From Hormiphora californensis (Eukaryota > Animalia > Ctenophora), in the NCBI GenBank assembly GCA_020137815.1, contig CM035358.1, positions 1,426,001-1,490,000 of the forward strand: a stretch of DNA of 64,000 nt, given 5' to 3'. Positions 33,201 through 64,000 of the stretch are shown here, in pieces. The first letter of the stretch is position 1; every line of letters begins with the position of its first letter. A program made the position numbers and the translations under genes. The notes under the pieces are model-generated. The model saw only the letters and a program-made list of their open reading frames with translations. It was not told the DNA's origin and made no database searches.

Positions 33201-35043
33201 ATTTATTAAAAATAGAAGCTGTCAAATAAAGCTTGTTTTAAAATTCTAGAACCATCTTTCTCTTGACATTTCTCTACCTGTCAACCTACCTCTCCCTTTT
33301 TAACCTGTCAAAATTTAGCTTATATTTGGTTATTTAGCTAGTCAGATGGTCAGACACGCACTGCACTTCCTAAATTTCTGACACTGATAGTTATCTCAGC
33401 TCGACTTCAAAACCTCAGACTTGGCAATATCTTCATGAAATCTCACTTTGAGAAAAATATTCATCCTAAATAGTTTACGTCCCAGGTACAACTACTAATT
33501 GTATAATTTAACCCTGATTTCAACCCCAGGTACCTCTCCCACATTGGAATGTGTACTTATTTTGGATATGACAAACATAATTCATTTACGATGGCACTAG
33601 TTCTGGCAGATAAGATATTCCCCCTCGCTGCCCTGCTTCTCCTCACCATCTTCTACCTGGTCTTCCTCAAAAAGGTGAGGAATATCAAGAAATAGTTCTA
33701 GTTGAGCTTCAGAGAATCTTCTAGGATCATTTGACCTGTCTGAGACGTTGGAATAATCTAAGATTCCAACGTCACAGACATGGTAACCACAAGCATTATA
33801 CTAGCAGGTTGTATAACCAGGCTCATGAGACTCTATGTACGTGTTGTAGGGTATAGTATATTTTCAGTTGGGGTAGTAGTCTTGTGGTTTATCAGTGCTC
33901 AATGATCACTCTGGAGGAAGTAGTTGCTTTATTGGTTATCATCTAAACCATGGGGTAGTTATCGACTGGAGGGTGGTTGAATTAATGCACCAGTTTCAAT
34001 TATCGATTCGATTATCAAACAACGCCCTTTATTATTGTTAAATTTTGGGCAACGTCTAGCATTGTAGCAACCGTTCAATACTTCTTGAGCAACCTGAAAC
34101 AGTAATTAATTATTCAATTGCACAATATATGACTTGTTAGATTTCACCAGGAGATGAGGGGTCACGCACAATATATGCTTTGTTCGTGTTACATGAATTA
34201 TGAAATTTCATGAAACTCATCTAATCTAGTATAGCTGTGTGTACTATTGCAATAGTCCCATGAAACTATTGCAATAGCTCTACATATATCAGCTTCTGGA
34301 CCAGCTTTTTCGCTGTCAATAAGATATTGCATTCACCAGAAGTTCTGGTGAATGCAATACTTATTGACAGCTAGAAAGCTAGAACTTTTATTATATGATC
34401 GGGCTTGAGCACCAGCAATAAAAAACAATCTGAAACTAACCCCTCCCTTCGTCCCCTGCAGGTGTACAACCTTTACCACTCGCCCCTCCAAAAGCGACTC
34501 TCCCGCTCGACACCGCTCAAAACAATCAACATCAGCAGTGGACCCGAACCGAGACGAAGCACCCCAACTCACATCAAAACCACCGCAGTCCTAGTCCACC
34601 GAGTCCGATCCCCAGACTGGCCTGGGTCACCCAGCACCCTCCTACCCAAACCTACCAACCGGAGGTTCAAACGGACATGTATCATGATAACTTTAGTAAT
34701 AATAGTGTTTGTAGTAACTTGGTCACCCTACTTCTTCTTAAAGTTCCTATACTTGCTAAAAGAGGAACACCCGATAGTGAAAACTGTACTGTTTCACCAA
34801 ATCGTGTTTATCACCTCAATTCTCCCTCCTGTTCTAAACCCTATTGTATACATATGTCAGTTTCCAGCCATGAAAGACCTCTTTAGAAAGGCTAGGAAGT
34901 GGTTATGTGATCCTAGGGAGGAAGGTATTGAGGAGTTAGGAGAGAATAATAATGCTGTGATTGTAGTAGCGGGAGGTAATGATCTTGAGCAGGATAAGGT
35001 GACGCCTAGAAATGTGCAACATATGTGTGTCACACACTCTTAG
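30203..35043 (+). CDS. Rhodopsin-class (class A) GPCR, orphan, 6 exons
   Basis: Exons 30203-30335, 30563-30652, 30823-30931, 32980-33114, 33530-33674, 34462-35043. Motifs: GN (TM1), LSLID (TM2), Cys at the top of TM3, ERL for DRY, W/P (TM4), ECL2 Cys, FVVTWSP (TM6), NPIVY (TM7). Confidence 0.92.
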
Positions 35044-47051: not shown

Positions 47052-50000
47052 TCAGTTGTTATCAATGTCAATATCAGCAAAGACGTCGTTAGAAAACACT
47101 AATGCTGGTGTCAGATGTTCCCTGTTTGTTCTGTTCTTCTTTGCTCTGAAATACGGATTATTGGTTAGCCTAGGGTTGTTAAATATTACTACACCAGCTG
47201 CCTGACAAGGTACATATTAGTCATCCCCACTGCTGCAGTATCCTAACAGAAGAGACAAAGATCCAAAGAAGAGACACAGAAGATCCAAAGATCCAAACTG
47301 AACTGAGTGACGCCAAACAGTATTTTTTCAACAACAATGAACATCTGTATTACCTGATAGTTATGAAGATTCCGATAGAAGCCACCAGCACTACCACTAC
47401 AGCTGCAAATACAGCAAGACCAAGGAAGTTAAACCCGCTATCAGTATCTTGAACTTCATCTGAAGGGGAGAGGGGGGGGTAAGATGTTTCATATCTGGAT
47501 TCACGCCGCAAATGTGCTTTTTTCAGCCCCGTAAATCGCGGCGCTAATCAAGAATTCATTAGGCTACTTTTTGTTGGAGAACTTTTCTAAAGTGGGAATC
47601 GCATATTCAGCATGTTCTCACCTTTTTCACGTGTAGAGAGGATGAAGGGAGAGGAATGGGAGAGAACATGGCCACTTTGGACAACTTGGAGATCACTACA
47701 ATCCCAGAATCTGAGAACTTGTCCTTTCTGGATTTCCCCCTTCTTTCTCCTCTCGGCGGGGCTCCACACGGGTGTGGTGAAGTCAACTGAGTAGTATATC
47801 CTTACTTTCTGGGTGACGTCATTCCATTCACAACCAGTGTCGTTAGTGTTTAGTGTACAACCTGTGCAGATTAGGGGGGGGGGTTAGATGGAATCGAGAA
47901 GAAAACTGGGTTGGGGCAGCCGGCAGAGTTAGCTGTGTTGGGGCAGAGTGAGCTGGGTTGGGGCAGCCGGCAGAGTTAGCTGTGTTGGGGCAGAGTGAGC
48001 TGGGTTGGGGCAGAGTGAGATGTGTTGGGGCAGAGTGAGCTGGGTTGGGGCAGAGTGAGCTGTGTTGGGGCAGAGTGAGCTGTGTTGGGGCAGAGTGAGC
48101 TGTGTTGGGGCAGAGTGAGCTGTGTTGGGGCAGAGTTAGCTGTGTTGGGGCAGAGTGAGCTGGGTTGGGGCAGAGTGAGCTGTGTTGGGGCAGAGTGAGC
48201 TGTGTTGGGGCAGAGTGAGCTGTGTTGGGGCAGAGAAGAAAACTGGGCTGGGGAATCTCACTCTTGAATGAGCTGTGTGGATCACTTACTTCCGTCCTTT
48301 AGACAGGGGATGATGAGACGGGGTCCACACACGGTAGCATTTACATCTCGTAGGTTAGCCAACATTTTGGATCTCTCATACTGCCCATCTGAGTTTTCTG
48401 TACAAACCTGCAGTAAAATGTGACATTGGGTAACCGTTAATTATACATAATTAATTAATTAATTAATACACTAGTGAATAACACTTACTGAGTCAAGTCC
48501 CATGCTGCTTGGAATCTTGAATGTCTGATAATCAGAAGCACTTGGGATAGCTTTAATTATTCCACACGTAGCCAGCTTTCTGTGGCTTATAGAAACCCTC
48601 GGATTTAAAACAGGTTGAAGTTTTCTTGAATGAAGCCGTTTCTGTGGAAATTATAGATTAGATCTCTCGTTCGGTACACCTGATGCACTTGGAACTCATA
48701 TGAATTGAGCGACAAGCTCGAGTAATATCCCCCCAAAATCCCATGAAACCTATAACAAATACAACTCCGTCTATTCTAATATCACTCACCCATGAGCTTA
48801 TAGCGCACTGTAGAGTTATCAGGTGGGCACGATACATGAGCTATAGTAGAGCCATCCCAGGGATTTCGAGTGTAGTTTATCGAGACGCCTGGGTCTGCAG
48901 AGGGAATTAGAGAGGTTGTAATGAATGGGGCTGTAGTGCAGATTCAAAGATTGAAATTGTATTGGTCTAGGAAAAAAGGGGAGGGGTGCTAAAAAGTAAA
49001 TATTTAGTTTTGGAGCTGCTGATTGAACTAAGAATACATTGGACAATCCTCACAAAAGGTGTGAGCCACCCAAGATCAACCTACCATTCCCGTAGACCCC
49101 AATGTTGGCCTGAGTTAGACAATTGTAGTAGGTCGTGTAGTGCTTCTTCTTCCTAACAACTACTTCATTTCCATCCTGGTCCCTCAAACCAGCCTGGTTG
49201 ATAATTGGGGATTTAGTATAGCTATCAATCATGATCAAAATAATAACCTCCGGAGTCCGTAAATTCAATCACGAGATGAGAAGTTGTCATCACTTACACT
49301 GCATGTTAGGACACCTCCCTTGGTTGCCACATTAGCCCTCACCACTCTAAACACCCCTCTGTAGTTGTAGTAAGTTCCATCGAATTTAACACTCGGTTCT
49401 TCCTTCCTCACCACGCTACCCCCCGACCACTCCACCCTCGTCCAACTTGGCTTGTCTCCAGCCAGCATACTACACTTCACATGCACTTCATCCCCGACAA
49501 TCAAACCAGAAGTGCTGTTTGTGCTGTATGTTAAACTCTTAACTCCAGGCACTGTGATCCACACTCTGTTACTCCGCTTGGGGTTATTATACCAAAAACC
49601 TTTTCCAAAGAATCTGACGGTATTGCCATGGTAACGAGTGATTGTATCCTCAGGGTATTTGACAGAGCACCGTGTGGTGTCGTTATCACCAGGGCGAGAG
49701 TTGGGCGAGTAGATGGTGAGGATACTCTCACTCTTGAGGGCGTCATCTCCCGAGGGCCGTTGACGGATCTTAGACCTGAGATTAATAATGTTAGTAATTA
49801 GTTAATTAATTAATTAGTTACTTAATTAAAAAATATATATTTACAGACCTCTCTTCACTTGACTGAAAGATTAAATTTGACCGGAACGGGAATAGGAAGA
49901 AAACAAATCACACATCTCCTATTATTAGTTTACCTAATTACCTGAATACCTGAATCTCCTAGTAGTTTACCTGAATCGGGAAGGTTGCTCCCAGGTAACC

Positions 50001-53000
50001 TCCACCTTCCCAGTGATGTGGGGATACTGACAGGTAACAGGTGTTGCAGACCCAACTAGCCAGATATGGGATGACGCGGGTAGCACCTGAACCTCTGGCA
50101 GTACCTCGACCTTCATTATCTCGGAGAGGAACGAGGCTCCAGTCTTATCATCGGTGTAGTTACAGCAGAAGAATCGGGTGGACCCGGCCCATTCGCCGAG
50201 AGCGATAGTAAAGTTAGCCCCAACACTATTCCAATCGTTGAAGTCATCTTTCCATTCATAAGATACATTATGATACGAGGGATTTCTAGCATTCCATTTC
50301 TGTTCCAGAAGCTCTAGAGTCCCCTCTGGCCAGTGCTGCTGGCTCCTAAATTGACACTCCACGATCGCATCCGTCCAATAACTTTGCGTGACAATGTGAC
50401 TCCAAGAGGGGGCGACCCAGTAACCCATGACAACCAAGTTGGCAGGTTCAGAGCTGATCAATTCGGTTGAAAAGAGCATGTGGCACCTGACCTCGCCTCG
50501 GAGATCGAAGGAAGCGTTCTGAAGGGTAAACGTAGTAGTGATGATGGAGTTGTTAGTTGTTGTTGTAGTGGTCCCGTCCAGGATTCGGCGGCCGTCTCGA
50601 TATAGGTCACCATTTGACATGAGTTTCTGAAAATAAACAGTTGTTAGTATCGTATAAACTGGGTTGTAACTATTATCATCCCCATTATACACTGACTAAA
50701 CCAGCGACTCCTAAACACCTTTAAACCAATTGTTACTAAGCTAGCGAGTAGCGACTAAACCACTGAGTATAATAACTGAGTGATTACAGCTGCCCAATTG
50801 AGTTAACTCACCGTGTTGTTGACAGTCCAGTAAACACTATACCGGGGAACACTAGGACACCCTTCTAAACCTGCACAGGAACTCTCCCCGCTCCGTATTG
50901 TTGCCCGTAGTACCACTCACAATCGTCACATTTTCAGGCTCCTCTATCAACAAATCCTCAGGGTACAACCCGACCTAGCTGGGAGTGAGGTGATTCCACA
51001 GTATTACACCCGTACCCCACAGTTGACCTTGCAGTACATGTTCCCGTAGTTGTAGGATGGATCAGCCCGGATCGTCCACTGGTAGATTGAGTTGTGGTGG
51101 GGTTTGTAGGTAGGTATGTAGTTTATTAGTGTCAGTTCATCCACCTATAATAGGAGGGGGGGTATGTAGTTTAGTGTCGTTCATCCACCTGTATGAGGGG
51201 GTATTACACGTCTCTGATCGGGGTAATACGGGGGGGGGGGGGTAACACTACCTAAAGATTCGTCAAAATCAAATAGTAGGGCTGGGGAACGACCAGCTCC
51301 CATATTTGCTCTCTTACCACTCGACGTTAGAGATATCCTTGGTTGTAAGATCACACCGTAGTTCCACAGTAGACTGTCCTAGTAACACCACTCCGTCCCG
51401 TGTTGACATGCTGAATTGTACACCTGGGAGAGGGATGTGGGATGAAAAATAGATGAAAACCTGAATTTATTGAGTAACCTTTACTTTCTAGAGTAATTAC
51501 TGATATAGACTTAAAAATTTGCTTCAATTTTCAATCGTGTATTGATTATCGAGACACTCACCTATAGGCTCGATTCTGAACGTATCACTAACGTTATGTC
51601 CACCCACAGTAAACACGCAACTGCCAAAACCTCCCTTCTTCGCTCCGAACTCTCCCCTTCCAGTATATCTACCATTACCAAGATCCTCTACCGTTCCGTT
51701 CACACTATATCCTCCAGGAGCATCAAATGACACACTACTGGGCGCGGCAGCGCTGGTAAGGGTGCAAGATACAGCTCCACTCTCATTGAAGTAGTTGTAG
51801 GAAACACACCGCTGATTTGAATTCACCGTCACCTTGGTAACGGTTATCGGGGAAACTCCCGGGACAATCATCACTCTGGCATTGTTCCAGAAACCAAACT
51901 GGCACGTGTAGTTTCCAGTGGCCCAGCCTTGTTTCAGTGTGATGTCACTCTTGTACTGGAGATATTTATCATCCGCACTGTTGGAAGATCTTGATATGAC
52001 ATGATTGTAGATAATCGCCATATTTTCATCGGATTTTATATCCTCCCCATTTGGATTTCTCCAAGTGACCATTTGAGGTAACTTAGCCGCGTTCTTGACA
52101 TGGATTGTGTAGGAGAGTTCTAACACGGGTTCGGTTACCATGACAACTGTATCACGTGCCGTTGCTAGGTAGGTAACAACATCCGTTACCCCTGTTAACA
52201 CATCACCATCCTGGAACGTGTTAACACACTTCCATGTCCCATAGTGGGTGTTATTGAATGACCAGGTTAGCCCCTCTTGATAGGCGCCCGAGACCATGAG
52301 TTTGTAGTTGGCAGGGTGACTGTTGCTTAGGAACCATTCTTGTTTGGTGGGGGTGTCAAGGGAGTTGACCTTACAGGGCAGTGTATGGTTTGTATTGATG
52401 TCAGTCCATTACAATGTTCACTCTATCTTCCATCTTTTCCAGCCCTGTAGAAATAAGTAGCGGTAATTGAACCAAAGGTGACCAGATTAGAGTTTGGGTA
52501 ACCATAGAAACTGGCAAGCGATACTTCAGTTGCTGCACGGTATCCAGGAAAGCTGAAGAAGAATTAGGGCAGCTAAACACTAACCTCTAACAATAACCAA
52601 GGTCGGACTAGATTCCATATCTTTGTTCCGTCCTTCAATCTTCCATCCACACTTGTAGGTCTCATCATGGACTCCAGTGGTTTTAAATCTTAGATTAGTT
52701 GATGCTTGCATTGTCTGGACGTTGTAGCTCACTTTGGAGATACCGTATTCAGCATCGTCTACATCACCATCCAGAGAGACCCAACTATCGACACCATCCT
52801 CTGTTTGTTTCTGAGGGGGGAGGGATAATTAAAGGAATAAAACCAATAGTGAAAATTGGGTATGCGAAGGGGTTGAAATGCGTTGAGCTAGAGCTTAGGA
52901 ATATGAGCTTGAGAAGGAGAGAACTTAGGACAAACTATACCTAACTTATATCAAGTAAAACTAAATTGCTAATTACTAATTATTAATTAATAATTACCTT

Positions 53001-56000
53001 ATACCAGGTGGAACTCTCGGGTGCTTGTTGCCCTGTGTAGACGCACTCCAGTTGTACATGCTCCTTTATGTTATGAACAAAGTACGGATTGGGCTGCTTA
53101 ATCACCACACCTATATGGAGAATTGGACTCGTAACCATGGCAACAAGCTTCAGAACCACAGTTTGAAGTAACGGGTGGGAAACACTTTGCCATGGCAACA
53201 TGGGTATGTTTTTCTGGCTAATTAACAGTTGATTAAAGTAATTAATTAGAAGTAAAGATAGAACATGATAACATACTATTTCTATAGAGTTGGGTAGTCC
53301 GTTCATCAGTCCTGTCATGAGAGAACTGCACATGACACGTGTAAGTCCCCTCTTGACCACTTTGCATGGATAACAGTCGGAGAGTGTGGGTTCTCACGTA
53401 GTCTGGGCTTTCTACCATCGACATTTCAACCTAGAGTAATTATGGGGGTGAACCACATTTTATGTAGAAACTATGTAATTTTTGCCAAAACTAAACGATT
53501 TCCAGTAGTAAGTTTCCAGTAGAAACAGTGTTTTCTATTGATGGGGTACCTTGCTTGGTCACATTGATACCTGAGTGAGATCGACGTCGCGCGCGACTGA
53601 GATCGATCTCACATATTCTTCGCGGAGTGAGAATATGTTGCAATGGACCCAAGTACCTTGCCAGGCTGATGTTCAACGTTCTCTCCATCTCTATCAATCC
53701 AGGTTACATTAGGGTGCCCCTCTACTGACCACACCACACACTTCATTACTCCGTTATAGTCGTCATCCATAAAACTCTCTCCTGATAATATGATAATGTG
53801 TGGTTGGGGTAGTTGCTAAGGGCACGAGTCTCTTGTTAAACAGTTGCCATGGGCGGTGTGCGGACTCTAGTGCTACACTCTAAGTCTACAGTGGACTCTA
53901 TATCTAAATTTAGATTTAGATAAAGAGTCCAAATAAGTCTAAACTCTAGGAGGACTCTATCTCTAAAAAGTCTAAACAGGGCGGACTCTTTATCTAAAAA
54001 GTCTACAAAGAGCGGACTCTATATCTACATAAATCTAAATTAGACATAGAGTCCGCCATTCTCAGCGAACTCGAGATTTCGGCCGTTAGGCCGGAAACGA
54101 GAGTTTGCTGTACCTCTATACTAATTGAGAAGTGTTAGGGCCATTATTTGGGTTCGAGGTTAGGGTTAGGGTTATGGTTAGGGTTAGGTTTTGGGTTGGT
54201 TTAGGATTTTAGACATAGAGTCCGGGTTGGGGGATTTGGCGCCAAAATGTACCAGGGGACTCTATGTCTAAAAAGTCTACACAGTGCGGACTCTATATCT
54301 AAAAAGTCTACACTGGGCGGACTCTTTATCTAAATTTTTTTCAAAGTCTAACTGTAGATAAAGAGTCCGCTTTTAGATATAGAGTCTGCCTTGAATTTAG
54401 ATAAAGAGTCCGTTAGCACTAGAGTCCGCCCACCGCCATGGGCACGAGTCTCTTGTTAAACAGTTGCCATGGGCACGAGTCTCTTGTTAAACTGTTGACA
54501 TGGAGTTCAAGCCCATGGTGAAAAACAAAAAGAGAACAATGTGATACACCACTAACCTTCCATTTCAATCCCACTCGCATTAACAATGGCGGTACTGGTG
54601 ATATTCCATAACTCGGGGGCCTCCCAGACAACATTGCAACTAAGATTACCAACATAAGAGGGGCCGTTTGATACTGTTATCTCTTTCTCTGTCTCACCAT
54701 CTGTAGAGGGGTGATCATTGAGTGTCTGAGGATCTTGCTTTTGTTTCAAACTTTTCAACACTACTTTAAGGGTACACCTGGCGTTTTTCATCATCGAGTG
54801 CCCAACCAAATGACTTAACCAAGGTTTAAGCCATACAAAATGGACCTCAAATATGCAATTTTAGCCCTAAAGTCGAATTCATATTTTTGCTACAGCCTAT
54901 TTTCAAAGTGGCGTTTTTTCAATTTTTGTTGGAATTTTTAACCTCAGGACCATTTTTTTTGAGATAGAAACATTAAATTCTTGGAATTTGAAGAGAATAT
55001 AAAGGTGAATAAGCCCAAAGAAGGATTTTTGAAATGGAGCTTATTTCTGGCCATGAGAAGGGTTTACTTTTTTGCTTCTTTGACACGCTGGCTGAGAATG
55101 TTCCCATGCTTCATTAGAGATGAAAATCTGGAAATAGTTGCTCAAAACGATAATCTATGTAGCCCAAAAATTTTGGAACTTTCCCGCCAAAGATGCGGTG
55201 TACAGAGCTTGTTTTGTGAAACCCGTCTTTTTGAAAAAGAGGGAAATTCCCCGTATCTCAAAAACGGATGATCGTAGAGACCTGGGACCAAGCTTAATCG
55301 ATTCAGAAGGTCCGATTTTGGGGGGGTCTTCTGAGAGACATTTTGCTCCTACTCCAACCGTTTTTGCTGTAATTGCGAAAAAGGTATCAGCAAGTAAGGG
55401 GGAAATCAGCCCGAAGTAGGCTACTGGAATAGAGTTGTTCCCCCTTTTCATAGAATTGGTTTTTTGCAATTACAGCAAGAACGGTTGGAATAGGAGCAAA
55501 ATGTCTCTCAGAAGACCCCCCCAAAATCGGACCTTCTGAATCGATTAAGCTTGGTCCCAGGTCTCTACAATCACCCGTTTTTGAGATACAGGGAATTCCC
55601 CTCTTTTTCAAAAAGACGGGTTTCACAAAACAAGCTCTGTACACCACATCTTTGGCGGGAAAGTTCCAAAATTTTTGGGCCACATAGATGATCGTTTTGA
55701 GCAACTATTTCCAGATTTTCATCTCTAATGAAGCATGGGAACATTCTCAGCCAGCGTGTCAAAGAAGCAAAAAAGTAAACCCTTCTCATGGCCAGAAATA
55801 AGCTCCATTTCAAAAATCCTTCTTTGGGCTTATTCACCTTTATATTCTCTTCAAATTCCAAGAATTTAATGTTTCTATCTCAAAAAAAGTGGTCCTGAGG
55901 TTAAAAATTCCAACAAAAATTGAAAAAACGCCACTTTGAAAATAGGCTGTAGCAAAAATATGAATTCGACTTTAGGGCTAAAATTGCATATTTGAGGTCC

Positions 56001-59000
56001 ATTTTGTATGGCCTTAACCCTGGTGAAGTCATTTGGTTGGGCACTCGATGATGAAAAACGCCAGGTGTACCCTTAAACAAATTAATTTGAGCTCGCGGCG
56101 GCGTCGTGTGTCTCAAACCCCCTGTAGGATCTAGCCTATGGTAAAAGTAATGGCCAATCATGACAAACATGGCACAGCCAAGGAAGTACTCGGGGAGATG
56201 ATTCGGACTGGTCCGGAAGCTGTTAAAACCTGCTTGACACACTTCGATACATCACAACCTGTGTGGGCCAATAAGGCGTCCTTATCAAAGGTTAACCGAC
56301 CCATTCTCGATGAATTCGCGGAGTTTCTCGGTATTCCTCCCCTATATGGTGAAAAGGGGGTTAAGGACATAGAGCTGAAAACAAAGCCCAGGATTGCTCT
56401 CAGGGTTGCTCAGGAGCTCAAAGCCCTGACCGTGCCAGTCAAATGTGCTGAATGTAACGACATCTACCAGCACAAGAGGAATGGCCTCGTTCCTCTGAGG
56501 TGTTTTCTCTGTCACCAACCTTCCCATGACTGTGAACCTTTGGTGAGTGTAATCACTTCCAGAAATGAAGCTTCAAGCCTGGTAGGAGAAGTTTGGATAT
56601 GTGATCCGTGCTGTGTTCCCAAAGATGAGGAAAAGGGTACACCGCTTACTACCAAGGTCTCATCGCGACTGAATACGCCTGGAAGGTCTAGGAATAACAG
56701 TCTGTCGATTGTTGAGCCCGGTAGTGAACGGAAAACGAAATTGAACGATGAGGCAAGCGAGAAGGTGAATGCTAACGATCCGACTGTGCTGGAAGCACTG
56801 GCCAATCTCGCGAAACAGCAGAAGGAGGCGGAAAAATTCCCAAACGAGTGCGAAACTACTTGTATGTTGCTCAAGGAGGGTAGGTGTCCTCATGGCATAA
56901 CTGGGAAGAAATCTGCTGACGGTAAGGATAGGTGTGACTTTTTTCATCCGAAACTATGTGTTCCCTGGGGGAAGAAAGGAGAGAAAGGTTGTGCCAAGGG
57001 TCCGGAATGTAGGAAACTACACAAGGCTATCTGTAGCAGAGCAAAAGAATCCAAGGAATGTTTTGAAAAGAAATGTTACCTTGTTCACCCCAAAGGAACC
57101 AACAGGCGAAAGCCAAGGGACCAGGTGGGGCAAAAGAGAGATAGAAGAAAGAGTGAACGTGGACCTTCCCAGGAAGGAGGACGAACGGAAAAGCCGTCCT
57201 TCGCAACGGGGCAAAACAAGTCCAATGATAAGAAGCCTGGCAGTTCGCTGGGACGAAACGGTAAACCAGGCGGTAAACCAAACGCAAAATTCACTCCAGC
57301 TAAAAGTCAGGGTGATTTTTTAGCTATCAAATCCCTTTTGGAAAAGCTTCAGAAGGGAATGTCGGACATAAAAGGGGATCAGACACAAATGCAGAAAACC
57401 CTGAAAACTCTGAGAGCAGATCAAGGAAAGAGCTGCTCAATGGGGAGGTCTCGGATCGGATCCGGCCACGGGTGCTGCAGTCAGGCGTGTTATTAAACGC
57501 CCAATCCTGCAACCCAAGTGCAAGGAGTAAATGTGCTTGGAAGTTGCAGTGCCTCAGGGAGGATGTGGAGTCAATCCCAGGAGAGGTACCCTTCATAGCT
57601 GTGACAGAAACATGGCTTAAACCATACGTGGAAAACTTACAAATTCTAAATGGATGGGAGAAGTACAGGGTCTACCGTTGTGATCGGAGATACAGGACAG
57701 GGGGCGGTGTTATGCTGCTGACGTCATTTGATCTACCGATAGACGAGCATGTAGCTTTGGATAACGACAGCTGTCAGCTGTTAATGTGCTCCTCAAGCCC
57801 AAGCAAGTGGGTATTTGGGGTACTGTACAGATCACCATCCGCTCCAGTTAGTGATTTTAGGGCGTGCCTGGAGGTAGCCAGAAATTTCATCGAACAGAGG
57901 CCAGATCATGTTGTCTGTCTTATGGGAGATTTTAATGTACCTGAGATCGCTTGGAATCCACCTGAGGCAAACCCAAGAACAGCAAATAGTGATGCACTGC
58001 TTAGCTTCACTGAGGACACGCTGCTTTCTCAATACATTGATGTACCATCGAGAGGCAGCAGCTACTTGGATTTGGTTTTCAGCAACTCTGAGACACTGGT
58101 TAACCGTGTGAGGAGCAAGGAGACTAGGTTGTCGGACCACAACCTATTGGAGTTTGGTGTGACTCGGAATCCGTGCTCTGCAGCCAGGGAAACTGTGCCA
58201 CCTCAGTTTGCTGCTGATGAGTTTCGTTCACTGGATATGTACAAAGCAGATACAGAGGCAATATGTGAGGCGGTAAAAAAGGTTGATTGGGAAGCTGTAT
58301 TCGGTAAGTGCACCACAGAAGAGCTTCCTCGAGTATTCAGGGATATATTGTTCCAGATTGCTCAGATTCATGCACCTAGGAAGAAACCGAGAAGGGGGAG
58401 GCCAAAGCTTGTCAGAAAACTTTCTCGGAAAAAAAGAGCTGCGAAAGGGCGTCTCGCACTGCTCTTGGAGAAAAAGGATACTCCAATCAGTCAGATTGAA
58501 GCTCTCCAAAAGAGGATCGATGTGCTTTATGGGGAAATCCGGGATGCTATCCTGGATGAGAATATAAAGCAGGAAAAACTGGCAGTTGAAAAGATCAAAA
58601 CAAACGCCAAGTACTTCTACAGCTACGCTAAGCGTTTCGCTGGTGACAGCAACAGTATCTCGGCGTTAACTGGAGAATCTGGCGAATTGATTACTGATAA
58701 GAAAGAAATTGTGGAAGCTTTGTCTAGGCAATTCAAGGCTGTGTTCAGTGACCCGGAGGAAGCTGACTTAAACACAGGACACGATATCACAGTTTGCGAG
58801 TCAATAACACCTGGTGACAATGATGTTGACTTTACAGTGAAAGATATCCTAGATGCTATCAAGGAGATGAAACCGGACGCAGCTCCTGGTCCGGACGGAA
58901 TACCGGCCATACTGCTGAAAAGCTGCGCTGAAGCGGTGGCACACCCACTGTACCTGATGTGGACTAGGTCGCTAGGGGAAGGTATTGTTCCATCATCGTC

Positions 59001-62000
59001 CAAGGTGTCGCTTGTCACCCCCCTCTACAAGAAGGGTAGCAGGTCCTCAGCTGCAAATTATCGCCCTGTCTCTCTGACCGATCATACCATTAAGGTCTTC
59101 GAGAGAGTCGTACGGAAAAAGCTAGTGAACCATTTTGAGAAAAATGAGCTTTTTAACGACATTCAACATGGATTTAGGCGTGGGAGAAGTTGCCTCACCC
59201 AGCTCCTAGATCACTTCGACAACATTCATAGTAATGCACTCGATGGCATGGAAACTGACTCTGTGTACCTTGATTACGCTAAGGCGTTTGATCGAGTTGA
59301 TCATAACATCTTGATTAGAAAGCTTAGAAGCTATAAGGTACATGAAGGTCTCGTGACATGGATCCAGTCTTTCCTGGAAGGAAGAGTGCAGAGAGTCACG
59401 GTGGATGGATGTCAGTCGGAGCCTGTACATGTTAAGAGCGGAGTTCCCCAAGGGTCAGTTTTGGGACCGATGCTCTTTTTAATATATCTGAATGATATCA
59501 CAACGGTTGTGTCAGGAAGTACACTGCGGTGCTTTGCAGATGACACACGAATCATGAAGAGTATTGGAGGAGAAATGGATATGAAAATACTCCAACGGGA
59601 CCTGGATTCGGTTACCGAGTGGTCACTGAGAAATAACATGAAACTGCATACGGATAAGTTCGAATTCCTACTGCATGGCGTTTCACGTGACCATCTCATG
59701 CACCATCTCCCTTTTACTGCTGATATCTTGAGCTACAGCACTTCAGCAGGGCTGCTGAAACCTATGTCCTCGGTTAAGGATTTGGGCGTGCTTGTTCATT
59801 CTGATCTAACCTGGTCCGGTCACATCGCTACCATCGCCGAAAACGCTAAGAGGAAAGCAGCCTGGGTGTTTAGTGTGTTCAGGACCAGGGATAGAGGGGT
59901 TATGGTAACCCTCTACAAGAGCATGGTAAGAAGCCTGCTGGAATACTGCTGCCCTCTTTGGAATCCTACCAAGATCCAGGATATCCAGGTTTTAGAGGGG
60001 GTGCAACGCTCCTTCACCAGACGGATCTCTGAGTGCAAGGGGATGGATTACTGGCAGAGACTGCAATACCTGGGCCTTAGCTCCCTGCAGCGCAGGAGAG
60101 AGAGATACTCCATTCTCCACATGTGGAAGATCATGCACGGCCTAGTCTCCAATGACCTCAAAATAAGGTTCACAACTGGAGGCCGACTTGGAGTTCGAGC
60201 TGTGGTTCCCAAATTGACCAAACTGTCCACTATGGCCAAACAGACAGCATATGACGGATCCTTTGCTGTTATGGGACCACGACTATGGAACTGTTTACCT
60301 GCAAAACTTAATCAAATTGACGAGTTCCAGGTATTCAAAGTTCAGCTGTCAAGATACCTGACGTCGTTTTCGGACTGTCCCCCAGTTACGGGATATGTAC
60401 GAAGCTCCAGGAACTCTATACTAGACATGAGACTGAACGACGGGGAGTTGCAAGCAAGCGATACCCCGGTCGGAGTGTAAACGGCGGCGAATCATCAGAA
60501 GTAACCAGAAGTAAGTAAACCGATTCAGAGGGGTCTGAAACAACCGAACAATCTAAGATCATGTAGTTAGAAATCATAGCTACGAAGTAACCCCTCGACC
60601 TTCGTAGAGCGCACTTAGTGGCTAGTGCCGGCCACTGGCCAGGGAGGGGTAACTTCGTTACCATTGGTTACTAACCAATGGTTACTAACCAATGGTTACT
60701 AACCATTAAAAACACCCCCGCACTCACCTATCCTCCTATCACCAATCCACCAGGACATAGCAAATGTCAGATTAGCAGTGTCTAATGAGTCATCCTGCTC
60801 AACGTTACAAGTAAATGTAGCAGTATCATCTGTCATCATCAAGGTAGCTGAATCAGGTGTGACACTGACATCTGAAAATGGAATGGATAAAAGGTTAAGG
60901 AACTGGAGTAAGAGTTCATTGAACTCGCAATTTACTACTAATTTACTACAAATTACTGCAGTGAGATGAAAGAAAATTAAAAATATCAAGAAAAAAAATT
61001 GAAATTTAATGACCAGCGAGGGTCAATTATTGTCAAATCAAAGTCTCCTATAAATTACCTCGCTTAAATACAGTCATTTCACGAGACACGATATCATCAT
61101 CCAGATCAGATGTGCTGCTATTGACTTGATCAAACTTGATTGTAGCATGGGCTGTGTATGTCTTATCAGGCAATCCAGAGTCCACATAATAGATCCAAGA
61201 AGAATAGTTAGATGACTGTCCCTCGGTTGCGGTGGTATTAGTTCCATCTACCGTCCAGATGACAGAGTCGGGTTTGATGTGGGGAGATGAGAATGTGAGT
61301 TGGAGACGGCCCATGTTGTACTGGTAGGGGTGATCAATACCAGCCACATCTGTAACACGTGGTTTAGTTATACCAATAGTGCAAAGAAACAAGGAAACAA
61401 AGAAAAAAAAAGAAAAAAAAACAAACAAACATACCAACAAAATAGGTTGTAACTTGGTCACTCCTAATTGACCTATAAGTATTATAGGTCCATTTCCAAT
61501 CATCTAAACACCGTGCTACACACATGAACATCTGTTTATCTCCATATCTCCTGTTAACCGTTAACCACTCTCCCTTCCAGGTGGTATAGTTGCTCCAGGT
61601 GTTATTATTCGAGGTGGTCCACCAAACCTCTCTGGATGAGATAGAGAGAGATTATTGAATTAGAGATAATGCCGTGATTGAAACTTAGTTTTCAGTTACA
61701 CTAATACCACTTCTACACTACTATACTACTACTAAAACTATGCTATTCAAGTTAAAAGGGTAACATGACAGAGGTAACTACCTGAGTAACAAAGATAACA
61801 AAGATAACAAGGGTAACTACCTGTTTGCGCACTCAGCGGTAAAGTTACAGTATATGTTTACAGTATCCTCAATTGATACCTCTCTTGTACCATTCATTAT
61901 CTCAATATCTGCGTGGGGGGAGGCAAAAGTTAAATTATATTATGTGTGTTTTGTATAATTGGACTTTATAAAGATGATTATTTATCTCGAACTAACTGAC

Positions 62001-64000
62001 CTCGTATGTATAGAGTGGTTACATTAGACATGTATCTATCACCCTCCGTTCCATTGATGTTAGTCCACACCTCACACCAATACGTGCCATTATCAATGAA
62101 CAACAGGGAATCAAACTGCAACATCATTCCATTCTCTCCATCAAGACGTTCGGGTGTACCACTGGCATTGTGGTACCATTGGTAGCTTGGTGTCCCGGTA
62201 TTACCAGTGACGCTGCAGGTAAGATTGGTGGAAGCGGAGGCAACTTCGAACCGACTCCTGTCAATATCCACGTCTGGAGAGAGAGATAGATAGAGAGAGT
62301 AAATGTAAGGAATGTTAATCAATTGTGGACAGTTTGAGAATAAATTGTGAGGAATGGCCCCCGGGCGCTTACCAGCGCTGTGAACCATTTGGGACAGCGA
62401 GAGGATTGTGAATCAACTGAGGCAGTAAATGTGATTGTGAGGAGTAAAACTTACCAAACACTCCAACGAAGGCATGTTCAGTCATGTTAAACCAGTACCC
62501 GTTATCCTCAAAAGCTAACAAACACGTCACATTCCAGCCATCTCTAATTGGTGTAAATGTAGCTACACTTCCGTTAGAGAGACCAGGCCAGGAGAGGGAA
62601 TCGTTGTAGTCATTGCCCAGTTCACTGGTAACGTTACAGGATAGGTTCACCTCACCACCTCGTAGTGCTTCCTTGTTGTCCACTACAATCTCTGAAAGTG
62701 GGTAGGCATTGTAGGCATTGTGGAACGAACTATAAATATTTGAGTCCCCCTCCCCCGATGATTATTAGTGTCATAGTTGATAGTGGTGACAAGTGAAATG
62801 TGACCTACCCATACAACCCGATAGTTTCTGGTGACAGGTGAAATGTGACCTACCCATACAACCCGATAGTTTCTGGTGACAGGTGTAATGTGACCTACCC
62901 ATACAACCCGATAGTTTCTGGTGACAGGTGAAATGTGACCTACCCATACAACCCGATAGTTTCTGGTGACAGGTGAAATGTGACCTACCCATACAACCCG
63001 ATAGTTTCTGGTGACAGGTGAAATGTGACCTACCCATACAACCCGATAGTTTCTGGTGACAGGTGAAATGTGACCTACCCATACAACCCGATAGTTTCTG
63101 GTGACAGGTGAAATGTGACCTACCCATACAACCCGATAGTTTCTGGTGACAGGTGAAATGTGACCTACCCATACAACCCGATAGTTTCTGGTGACAGGTG
63201 AAATGTGACCTATCCATAGTTTCACAGTTTCTGATGTAATATGACCTACCCACAAGATCAATAGCAATGGTATCCTGAACAGTAGGACTCTCCTCTAGAT
63301 AACATATCACCTCCCCGCTACTGTTAACCATCAGATAGCTAGTTGTTGAGTTATACTTCACTGACAAGTCCGTTAAATCTGCAAGTAACAGTCAATATTT
63401 TTATACATAGAGCTTTCATTATAAAATAATTAATGGGTGTCCAAATGTTATCAGAAGTACCTGTTGAGTCGTCCTTAGTTTTCCATTTGATACTCTGAGA
63501 CTCACTATTGACGGTACACCACACATTGACACCCCATCCCTTCATTATCACAGCATTGTTGAATGCACTCTTTACAGCTGATAATGGGGGGGGGGGTAGT
63601 GATGGAGAGTTTGTTATTTGGGGTTAGAAATAATCTGGGTTAGGTCCTAGAACCCAAATCTGAACATTCTGGGAATCATTTCAGATTTGATTTTGTAAGA
63701 ACAATAGACCTACACATGGTCATGCAATGTACAATTTGTACAAGTTACAAATGAAAAGTTTTCAGATACACAAAAAGTACATACCCAGTTTCTCCAGTGT
63801 AGAATAATGACTCCGCAACACCTTGGCAGTATGATGAATCCCTGAATACTCCACTTCACAGAACACCTTCTTCCCCACCATACCCTCACTCATCGTCACC
63901 TCCCAGGAACTAACAAACACCCCATCCTCTGTTATATTCGACACTGTACCATCACTAACCAGCTCAATATCACCCACATCATTCAGGTAGTTCCACCTCA
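47052..64000 (-). CDS. Large multi-Ig-domain type I membrane glycoprotein (5' end outside the window), with sushi-like and Cys-rich juxtamembrane region; several apparent indels
   Basis: Many exons with the C...W...YxC Ig pattern (e.g. TNLTCSVTG..SYQWYHN..DNGTYWCEV) and dense NxS/T sequons. TM exon 47459-47354 (LGLAVFAAVVVVLVASIGIFITI); last exon 47145-47052 AKKNRTNREHLTPALVFSNDVFADIDIDNN*. Confidence 0.85.
47905..48252. repeat. 20-bp G-rich minisatellite (gggcagagtgagctgtgttg)n, intronic
   Basis: About 16 visible units. Confidence 0.93.
53555..53652. mobile_element. 98-bp MITE with 9-bp TSD (GTACCTTGC), MULE-like; copy 2
   Basis: Same 5' 30 bp as 39192; TSD at 53546-53554 and 53653-53661. 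Confidence 0.85.
53852..54437. mobile_element. MITE (GGC...GCC TIR, 3-bp TSD ATG) with subterminal repeats and a TTAGGG-like core
   Basis: TIR ggcggtg(t/g)gcggactctagtgcta; many ggactct(a/t)tatctaa motifs in both orientations; ggttagggttagggttatggttagggttagg at ~54158-54188; inserted into a 31-bp tandem repeat. Confidence 0.8.
54770..56072. mobile_element. 1.3-kb foldback DNA transposon, TTAA TSD, GGG...CCC termini (Kolobok-like)
   Basis: ~610-bp near-identical arms (54770-55383 / 55459-56072) with a ~75-bp spacer; ttaa at 54766-54769 and 56073-56076; purine-purine start argues for Kolobok rather than piggyBac. Confidence 0.88.
56138..57496 (+). CDS. LINE ORF1 protein: PHD-like finger, three CCCH-type fingers, basic linker, C-terminal coiled coil
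   Basis: CAEC...CFLC...HDC...WICDPC; three C..C..C..H clusters ending DFFH, RKLH, YLVH; heptad segment IKSLLEKLQKGMSDIKGDQTQMQKTLKTL. Confidence 0.88.
   Translation: MVKVMANHDKHGTAKEVLGEMIRTGPEAVKTCLTHFDTSQPVWANKASLSKVNRPILDEFAEFLGIPPLYGEKGVKDIELKTKPRIALRVAQELKALTVPVKCAECNDIYQHKRNGLVPLRCFLCHQPSHDCEPLVSVITSRNEASSLVGEVWICDPCCVPKDEEKGTPLTTKVSSRLNTPGRSRNNSLSIVEPGSERKTKLNDEASEKVNANDPTVLEALANLAKQQKEAEKFPNECETTCMLLKEGRCPHGITGKKSADGKDRCDFFHPKLCVPWGKKGEKGCAKGPECRKLHKAICSRAKESKECFEKKCYLVHPKGTNRRKPRDQVGQKRDRRKSERGPSQEGGRTEKPSFATGQNKSNDKKPGSSLGRNGKPGGKPNAKFTPAKSQGDFLAIKSLLEKLQKGMSDIKGDQTQMQKTLKTLRADQGKSCSMGRSRIGSGHGCCSQACY
57316..57358 (+). promoter_or_regulatory. Candidate -1 programmed ribosomal frameshift signal (U_UUU_UUA plus stem-loop)
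   Basis: ORF1 codons GAT TTT TTA put the heptamer in the correct phase; 9-nt spacer; stem 57332-57342 / 57348-57358 (11 bp, two G-U pairs), 5-nt loop. Confidence 0.7.
57316..60480 (+). CDS. LINE ORF2: apurinic-like endonuclease plus reverse transcriptase (frame open from 57316; first ATG only at 57712)
   Basis: EN motifs LLNAQS, VTETW, MGDFN, LDLVF, SDH; RT motifs PGPDG, YRPVSL, QHGF, LDYAKAFD, GVPQGSVLGP, FADD. Confidence 0.96.
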   Translation, partial: FFSYQIPFGKASEGNVGHKRGSDTNAENPENSESRSRKELLNGEVSDRIRPRVLQSGVLLNAQSCNPSARSKCAWKLQCLREDVESIPGEVPFIAVTETWLKPYVENLQILNGWEKYRVYRCDRRYRTGGGVMLLTSFDLPIDEHVALDNDSCQLLMCSSSPSKWVFGVLYRSPSAPVSDFRACLEVARNFIEQRPDHVVCLMGDFNVPEIAWNPPEANPRTANSDALLSFTEDTLLSQYIDVPSRGSSYLDLVFSNSETLVNRVRSKETRLSDHNLLEFGVTRNPCSAARETVPPQFAADEFRSLDMYKADTEAICEAVKKVDWEAVFGKCTTEELPRVFRDILFQIAQIHAPRKKPRRGRPKLVRKLSRKKRAAKGRLALLLEKKDTPISQIEALQKRIDVLYGEIRDAILDENIKQEKLAVEKIKTNAKYFYSYAKRFAGDSNSISALTGESGELITDKKEIVEALSRQFKAVFSDPEEADLNTGHDITVCESITPGDNDVDFTVKDILDAIKEMKPDAAPGPDGIPAILLKSCAEAVAHPLYLMWTRSLGEGIVPSSSKVSLVTPLYKKGSRSSAANYRPVSLTDHTIKVFERVVRKKLVNHFEKNELFNDIQHGFRRGRSCLTQLLDHFDNIHSNALDGMETDSVYLDYAKAFDRVDHNILIRKLRSYKVHEGLVTWIQSFLEGRVQRVTVDGCQSEPVHVKSGVPQGSVLGPMLFLIYLNDITTVVSGSTLRCFADDTRIMKSIGGEMDMKILQRDLDSVTEWSLRNNMKLHTDKFEFLLHGVSRDHLMHHLPFTADILSYSTSAGLLKPMSSVKDLGVLVHSDLTWSGHIATIAENAKRKAAWVFSVFRTRDRGVMVTLYKSMVRSLLEYCCPLWNPTKIQDIQVLEGVQRSFTRRISECKGMDYWQRLQYLGLSSLQRRRERYSILHMWKIMHGLVSNDLKIRFTTGGRLGVRAVVPKLTKLSTMAKQTAYDGSFAVMGPRLWNCLPAKLNQIDEFQVFKVQLSRYLTSFSDCPPVTGYVRSSRNSILDMRLNDGELQASDTPVGV
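62784..63249. repeat. 45-bp minisatellite (9 full units plus partials) starting at a splice donor
   Basis: tgtgacctacccatacaacccgatagtttctggtgacaggtgaaa repeated almost perfectly. Confidence 0.96.

Follow-up and report, generated by a model that had tools for sequence, protein, structure and literature searches.

The LINE in the stretch of Hormiphora californensis DNA analysed here (the window, 64,000 nucleotides) raises the question of how its endonuclease and reverse transcriptase are translated. The frame that encodes them opens inside the preceding ORF, immediately behind a stop codon, and reaches its first ATG beyond the first endonuclease motif. The original prediction saw in this arrangement a -1 frameshift cassette of the retroviral kind. 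Judged from the sequence of the locus and of its relatives, -1 programmed frameshifting at U_UUU_UUA (57316-57322) is very probably the main route to the endonuclease-reverse transcriptase.

The Element and Its Overlapping Frames

The LINE is an intact two-ORF element on the forward strand, extending from about 56.1 kb to 60520 of the window, within which no second copy was found. ORF1 (56138..57496) runs from an ATG at 56138 to a TAA at 57494-57496 and encodes 452 aa. The ORF2 frame (57316..60480), on the same strand, is open over 1054 codons and encodes a linker, an APE endonuclease, a reverse transcriptase and a C-terminal domain. Exo_endo_phos, Exo_endo_phos_2 and RVT_1 were matched above the Pfam cut-offs in ORF2; no Pfam match to RNase H was obtained in the element, and the Pfam search of the ORF found no protease domain. 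The 3' UTR is short (60481..60520, + strand) and ends in AAGTAA-type repeats without poly(A); similar repeat ends were seen in most complete relatives. An APE endonuclease followed by a reverse transcriptase in ORF2, an ORF1 upstream and a short-repeat 3' end are the features of an APE-type non-LTR element. By its architecture the element falls into the CR1 group of APE-type LINEs; the lack of an RNase H match and the short-repeat tail agree with the CR1 clade in the strict sense, of which it is a putative member. We take the C-terminal domain of ORF2 to resemble that of invertebrate CR1 elements.

The two frames meet at a heptamer. A TGA (57313..57315) closes the ORF2 frame just 5' of the slip site, and directly after it TTTTTTA (57316..57322) is read in ORF1 as GAT TTT TTA (Asp-Phe-Leu), with U_UUU_UUA in X_XXY_YYZ phase. 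It is followed by a spacer of 9 nt (57323..57331) and by a predicted 11-bp stem-loop (57332..57358), a family-specific candidate for the frameshift stimulator. ORF1 and the ORF2 frame overlap by 181 nt in the window copy. Behind the heptamer (57323..57496, + strand) the overlap is dual-coding: frame 0 specifies a helix and tail of ORF1, and frame -1 a Ser/Pro/Thr-rich linker to the endonuclease. Motif I of the endonuclease (LLNAQS) has its Asn at 57496 and the catalytic Glu lies at 57607; the first ATG of the ORF2 frame is 3' of both, at 57712, and is 216 nt past the ORF1 stop. A GTG in the same frame (57472..57474) lies 22 nt 5' of the ORF1 stop and may serve as a secondary start for reinitiation. 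On this layout the original prediction held. The -1 position of ORF2 and its opening at the in-phase heptamer after TGA were confirmed base for base, as were the stop-free overlap of both frames over 181 nt and the lack of an ORF2-frame ATG before 57712; recomputation returned the length of 1447 aa given for an ORF1-EN-RT fusion.

Other repeats lie next to the LINE. A foldback or MITE-like element (54765-56077), with 618-nt inverted arms that are 98% complementary and 77 nt apart, adjoins its 5' end and leaves at most 60 nt for the 5' UTR. Past the 3' end, a palindromic short element (60560-60705) combines a hairpin-like stretch with three self-complementary repeats of 14 nt. In some relatives (L011, L020, L028, L029, L037, L039, L046, L050 and L052), a conserved small hairpin of the GGTC...GACC type overlaps the ORF2 stop and is followed by AAGTAA-type repeats; this hairpin is probably a recognition signal for the reverse transcriptase. 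Elsewhere, the window contains a large 32-nt satellite array, partly inverted (192-2989), and a 45-nt tandem repeat of 9.7 copies with 98% matches that is open in two frames of the reverse strand (62784-63218). By eye, open frames resembling host-gene exons were seen at 49967-52408 (- strand, immunoglobulin-like repeats) and at 34399-35043 (+ strand, a GPCR-like helix region).

Relatives of the Element

Relatives were collected with a degenerate pattern for the endonuclease motif, which yielded 53 metagenome loci and one genome locus. L041, L047 and L056 were dropped as chance matches, L056 being the sole match on a genome contig. Five loci that do not reach the junction were left out: L007, L013, L023, L042 (contig edge) and L045 (truncated or chimeric). 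The 46 informative metagenome loci that remained were clustered at 80% endonuclease identity, which gave 36 groups including the window, 32 of them with an in-phase site. The median pairwise endonuclease identity across families is 43%, and that of the window to the others 29-53%; the families share ancestry, and L040 and L053, near-identical at the junction, should count once. The loci found in marine metagenomes probably come from several animals. ORF1-like clusters numbered 1754 at E<=0.001 and 706 at 1e-10. The only named homologs carry EukProt 'sb' identifiers, which we take to be those of a ctenophore. Among viral contigs no relative was found, and two distant reverse transcriptase matches were set aside.

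Close relatives were compared over 57150-57750 in contigs of the runs X5, X7, X11 and X12, which represent a further sample of the window's organism, a second organism and two marine metagenomes. The copy of the second organism has 33 differences from the window in 601 nt, and that of the two marine metagenomes 15 in 315 nt. No change was found in the heptamer or in the stem at 57332-57358 in any of the four runs; the spacer has one shared substitution (57325), and the other 138 nt of the overlap contain 14 variable sites. The unchanged heptamer and stem are no more than suggestive, as the protein is conserved here too.

Conservation of the Heptamer

Conservation of the heptamer among relatives had been named beforehand as a test of the original prediction, and the site came through it. 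An in-phase heptamer lies inside ORF1 in 44 of the 46 informative loci (39 U_UUU_UUA and five G_GAU_UUU), 288-531 nt 5' of the catalytic Glu codon; the other two, L029 and L054, have the heptamer, thrown off-phase by a downstream indel. Among the 32 families, T_TTT_TTA is found in 28 and G_GAT_TTT in 4. The three synonymous positions of the heptamer are fixed in 28/28 of the U6A families, whereas elsewhere in these elements the T_TTT_TTA codons are used at only 1/108 Phe-Leu pairs, and they are absent from the 7753 upstream ORF1 codons. Over 10 family pairs, the divergence of heptamer and spacer is 9%, compared with 32% upstream and 26% further downstream. In a tree of 46 rows, from which short rows were left out, U6A is present on both main branches, and G_GAU_UUU is found in one well-supported group of three and in L038. 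The latter heptamer joined the search only after it had been seen in the data. This single substitute is itself slippery, since the same heptamer has been tested as a -1 site in pea enation mosaic virus (PMC4737148).

In L029 the overlap indel joins ORF1 and EN-RT in one frame (471 + 956 codons open, with the heptamer 337 nt before the catalytic Glu), and this locus is a natural fusion, a dead copy or an assembly error. L021 has a premature ORF1 stop just 5' of the heptamer.

At the protein level, x-Phe-Leu follows the zinc fingers in 115 of 138 ORF1 homologs. The five amino acids that no U-ending codon encodes (K, E, Q, M and W) never occur as x; they make up 22% of linker residues. The 23 homologs without x-Phe-Leu are known at the protein level alone, and several of them show [Q/E/K/A]-Asp-Phe, compatible with G_GAU_UUU. 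In P0091, P0097, P0149, P0156, P0177 and P0191, Lys-Asn-Asp replaces x-Phe-Leu before the terminal helix; these homologs would be compatible with an A_AAA_AAY heptamer.

The same position could be read as a splice site, with UUUUUUAG as the acceptor, such that an upstream ORF1 exon would be spliced in cis to the ORF2 frame or trans-splicing would give a separate ORF2 mRNA. This would agree with the G that directly follows the heptamer in 25/28 U6A families and with one X5 contig in which foreign sequence is joined at 57322. However, the AG is missing in 3/28 U6A families, and the first AG occurs in all three phases among the G_GAU_UUU families. An acceptor would also allow C, yet a synonymous C is found in 0/28 families. 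The first AUG past the heptamer belongs to ORF1's frame in 30/32 families. As to the foreign sequence in X5, nothing in the window matches it, and it belongs to a list of six loose ends of X5, such as truncated insertions would give. Splicing is thus considered most unlikely as the route to ORF2.

The Open -1 Frame

The -1 frame of the 32 families contains 276 stops in 3002 codons before the heptamer and 0 in 2337 after it. In the relatives the heptamer follows the last -1 stop at a distance of 0-36 codons (median 3), and the +1 frame retains its stops. From the ORF1 sequence and codon usage, about 97 stops would be expected in the downstream -1 frame, where none was seen; in the upstream control, the same model expects 229.5 and 207 were seen. 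The overlap of the frames behind the heptamer measures 169-415 nt across families, with 55-135 stop-free -1 codons preceding the ORF1 stop. Stops in the -1 frame 3' of the heptamer, which would have told against the original prediction, are absent from 32/32 families, and the ORF2 frame is kept open from the heptamer by selection against stops. A heptamer and an open frame in a single copy could be due to chance; the counts across families cannot.

Slippage of RNA polymerase on the T run, by which one added U would give minority transcripts with ORF1 and ORF2 in frame, would depend on this heptamer and on the open -1 frame just as frameshifting does. HIV reverse transcriptase is reported to slip on U6A (PMC5737442). 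The run is just 6 T, however, and 4 T in the G_GAU_UUU families, and polymerase slippage would make the strict ORF1 codon phase unnecessary. Transcripts with an extra U would moreover enter the genome, and at no locus are the ORFs fused at the site by a longer run in phase. We regard polymerase slippage as highly implausible.

A last possibility at this site is that Phe-Leu is kept merely as the start of the ORF1 helix and that the overlap is incidental. The modelled helix begins exactly at Phe-Leu, and Ser, Asp and Asn often cap helices, which also counts in favour of this view. Selection on the protein, however, can neither fix synonymous codons, as the contrast of 28/28 with 1/108 would demand, nor remove the roughly 97 stops expected in the -1 frame. 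The codon counts and the missing stops largely refute an incidental overlap, to which we give next to no probability.

Start Codons and the ORF1 Stop

The leading alternative is termination-reinitiation of the SART1 or L1 type, in which ribosomes would terminate at the UAA of ORF1 and begin again a few codons 5' of it, at the GUG or AUG at 57472. In 31/32 families ORF1 ends in a TAA that is part of the Leu-Asn codons of motif I and lies one codon before the Asn, and a position fixed in this way would suit reinitiation. (The usual last residue of ORF1, Cys, Tyr, Ser or Phe, follows from the hydrophobic codons of ORF2.) The start position also lends itself to such a restart. The GTG that the original prediction noted at 57472 is there in the window and is kept in X5 and X7, the other sample of the same organism and the second organism; in the metagenome copy (X11/X12), a close relative, 57472 reads A and the codon is ATG. 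An ATG at 57472 occurs in a more distant family and in a loose end of X7 too, and P0004, with an ORF2 72% identical, starts at the equivalent position. The available texts on viral TURBS reinitiation (PMC10275272) and on L1 (PMC1965478) indicate that the former tolerates distances of about 30 nt, which includes the 22 nt found here, and that L1 ORF2 tolerates non-AUG sense codons in place of its start. Predicted ORF2 starts in many proteins fall within motif I.

Reinitiation nevertheless leaves the invariant heptamer and the long stop-free stretch of -1 codons before the ORF1 stop unexplained, and the restart would have to occur upstream of the stop in order to retain the first endonuclease strand. 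Stop-start coupling of the SART1 type would have an AUG overlapping the ORF1 stop or next to it; an AUG 7-37 nt before the stop was found in 1/32 families; in 21/32 even the near-cognate starts are missing, AUG, CUG, GUG, UUG and ACG all being absent from this interval. Between the heptamer and the motif-I Asn, 24/32 families have no AUG, and the other 8 have one at scattered places. The consensus AUG before motif I that would have told against the original prediction is therefore not common to the clade.

As the main route, termination-reinitiation is very unlikely. It may coexist with frameshifting, because the subclade of the window has an AUG or GUG 22 nt before the ORF1 stop and the position of the stop is fixed; such reinitiation alongside frameshifting would be most plausible in this subclade. 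The fixed TAA may have been inherited and be anchored in a conserved motif, or else be the trace of stop-coupled reinitiation that still operates beside frameshifting. Frameshifting as the main route is supported by the comparison across the clade in four respects: the phase of the heptamer, its invariant codons, the open -1 frame and the missing AUG.

The Predicted Downstream Stem

The part of the original prediction that concerned the RNA structure was borne out only partly. The stem at 57332-57358 has 11 bp, including two G-U pairs, with a loop of 5 nt and a spacer of 9 nt, and is both the minimum free energy and the centroid structure. When 57323-57400 is folded, as had been proposed, the stem is recovered, and the stability is modest compared with shuffled sequences (z -1.57, with 16/200 shuffles as good); a z of -3.87 was obtained for the stem only in a 35-nt stretch chosen around it. 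In the relatives, when only the sequence behind the heptamer is folded, the pairing of 5' arms peaks at +9..+18 (0.56-0.71 versus about 0.4). In 21/32 families, where about 6 would be expected, the best stem starting at +5..+12 is better than those of four control windows, and the mean folding z just 3' of the heptamer is only -0.9 across families.

Stems are thus enriched 5-12 nt downstream, but their shape varies. Short hairpins are found in the window, L049, L011 and L032, a long-range stem closing about 60-70 nt later in L046, L050 and L028, and no good stem in L022 and L024. The 11-bp hairpin of the window is therefore a family-specific case of a looser requirement. The compensatory changes that the original prediction looked for in relatives amount to 1/22 pairs in the subclade of 8 sequences with the hairpin, which is not significant. 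In the subclade of 12 sequences with the long-range stem, 81% of the stem is paired, against 28-51% when it is slid; the covariation score was reached by 88/500 shuffles and is not significant either. A pairing of the heptamer site with the element's own 3' tail was also considered. Among 18 elements no preference was found (permutation p 0.12-0.92), and such long-range pairing is rejected at this resolution.

The ORF1 Protein and the Predicted Fusion

ORF1 consists of an N-terminal helical domain, a PHD-like Cys/His cluster, three CCCH-type zinc fingers, a disordered linker, a long C-terminal helix and a short tail. Its Cys/His residues are invariant in an alignment of 82 sequences. ORF1 itself has no Pfam match and no sequence match in the PDB; Pfam zf-CCCH and PHD are matched weakly, and in ORF1 homologs alone. 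A Foldseek search with the model of ORF1 gave no match at E<=0.001, CCCH proteins being weakly present. The AlphaFold2 model (mean pLDDT 75, pTM 0.46) has ordered N-terminal and zinc-finger regions, disorder at residues 337-390 and a single long helix (392-432) starting at the slip site. RNA binding is the probable role of the PHD-like and CCCH fingers, and the C-terminal helix is probably an oligomerising coiled coil.

In the proposed mechanism, the stem 5-12 nt downstream would pause ribosomes, and tRNA-Phe and tRNA-Leu would re-pair one base back on U_UUU_UUA. A minority of ribosomes would go on to make the 1447-aa fusion of ORF1, linker, endonuclease and reverse transcriptase, while most would terminate ORF1 at its UAA, within the Leu-Asn codons of motif I of the endonuclease. 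Because the slip site coincides in the model with the end of the linker and the start of the C-terminal helix, the fusion would keep the PHD-like and CCCH fingers and have the helix swapped for a flexible Ser/Pro/Thr tether. The slip ratio would set the ratio of ORF1p to reverse transcriptase as that of Gag to Gag-Pol is set, and the fusion could tie the reverse transcriptase to its own RNA. Self-processing of the fusion is improbable, because the ORF is without a protease domain.

Taken more widely, the comparison makes it probable that a large clade of LINEs in marine animals uses -1 frameshifting of the retroviral style. Its heptamers would be interchangeable (U_UUU_UUA, G_GAU_UUU and perhaps A_AAA_AAY) and its stems freely remodelled, and the reverse transcriptase would be made as an unprocessed Gag-Pol-like fusion, with the zinc fingers of ORF1 attached to EN-RT and the oligomerising helix replaced. 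If this is true, a reverse transcriptase covalently tied to the putative RNA-binding fingers of ORF1 would provide cis preference and a fixed stoichiometry by simple means. A further consequence would be that gene callers truncate such proteins inside the endonuclease and that repeat curators may mistake a functional frameshift for decay. A defined, conserved -1 cassette makes the translation of LINE ORF2 directly testable with a short reporter.

Comparison with Known Systems

Reviews treat the translation of LINE ORF2 as unsettled, and reinitiation is the mechanism in the cases tested (PMC3708506 and PMC3894237). For Paramecium LINEs, +1 frameshifting or read-through has been suggested in the source available to us. 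Among non-LTR elements, only the HeT-A gag is named in the passages found in the first 300,000 characters of a 2016 review of frameshifting. A cassette of heptamer and stem in a LINE was not found in the literature searched, which covered neither most subscription journals nor Repbase reports.

SART1 and human L1 resemble the element in having a bicistronic LINE RNA from which ORF2 is made at a low ratio and in dependence on the translation of ORF1 (available parts of PMC3708506, PMC10275272, PMC2881922 and PMC3894237), and SART1 likewise uses a downstream RNA structure in the translation of ORF2. They differ in that they reinitiate at or after the ORF1 stop to give a separate ORF2p, whereas in the present clade an invariant heptamer precedes a frame overlap of 169-415 nt, in which an AUG is mostly lacking. 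The CR1-group LINEs with a PHD ORF1 in PMC4120745 have the same APE-RT ORF2, PHD-like ORF1 cluster and short-repeat 3' end; no tandem CCCH fingers with a terminal helix are among the ORF1 types described in its available text. The word 'frameshift' is absent from that paper and from a 2026 survey of CR1 (PMC13343379).

Frameshifting is said to be required for ORF2 in the Dictyostelium elements TRE5-A and TRE3-A, which are also APE-type non-LTR elements and are also assigned a -1 shift (legend in PMC5911963). That legend gives no slippery site, stimulator or assay, and the two elements have another host, an oligo(A) end and a C-terminal zinc finger. The umbravirus of PMC4737148 shares the G_GAU_UUU site found in 4/32 families here; in the available text, it needs a long-distance interaction with its own 3' end, whereas no pairing with the tail was detected in the LINE. 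From HIV-1 gag-pol (PMC3561942), the LINE differs in being a non-LTR element, in having an APE endonuclease but neither a protease nor an integrase domain, in the variable shape of the stem among families and in that its frameshift is predicted from sequence. The likeness nevertheless extends to the same U_UUU_UUA, a short spacer and a downstream stem-loop, predicted in the LINE, and in both a structural ORF overlaps the polymerase ORF in the -1 frame and runs on past the site.
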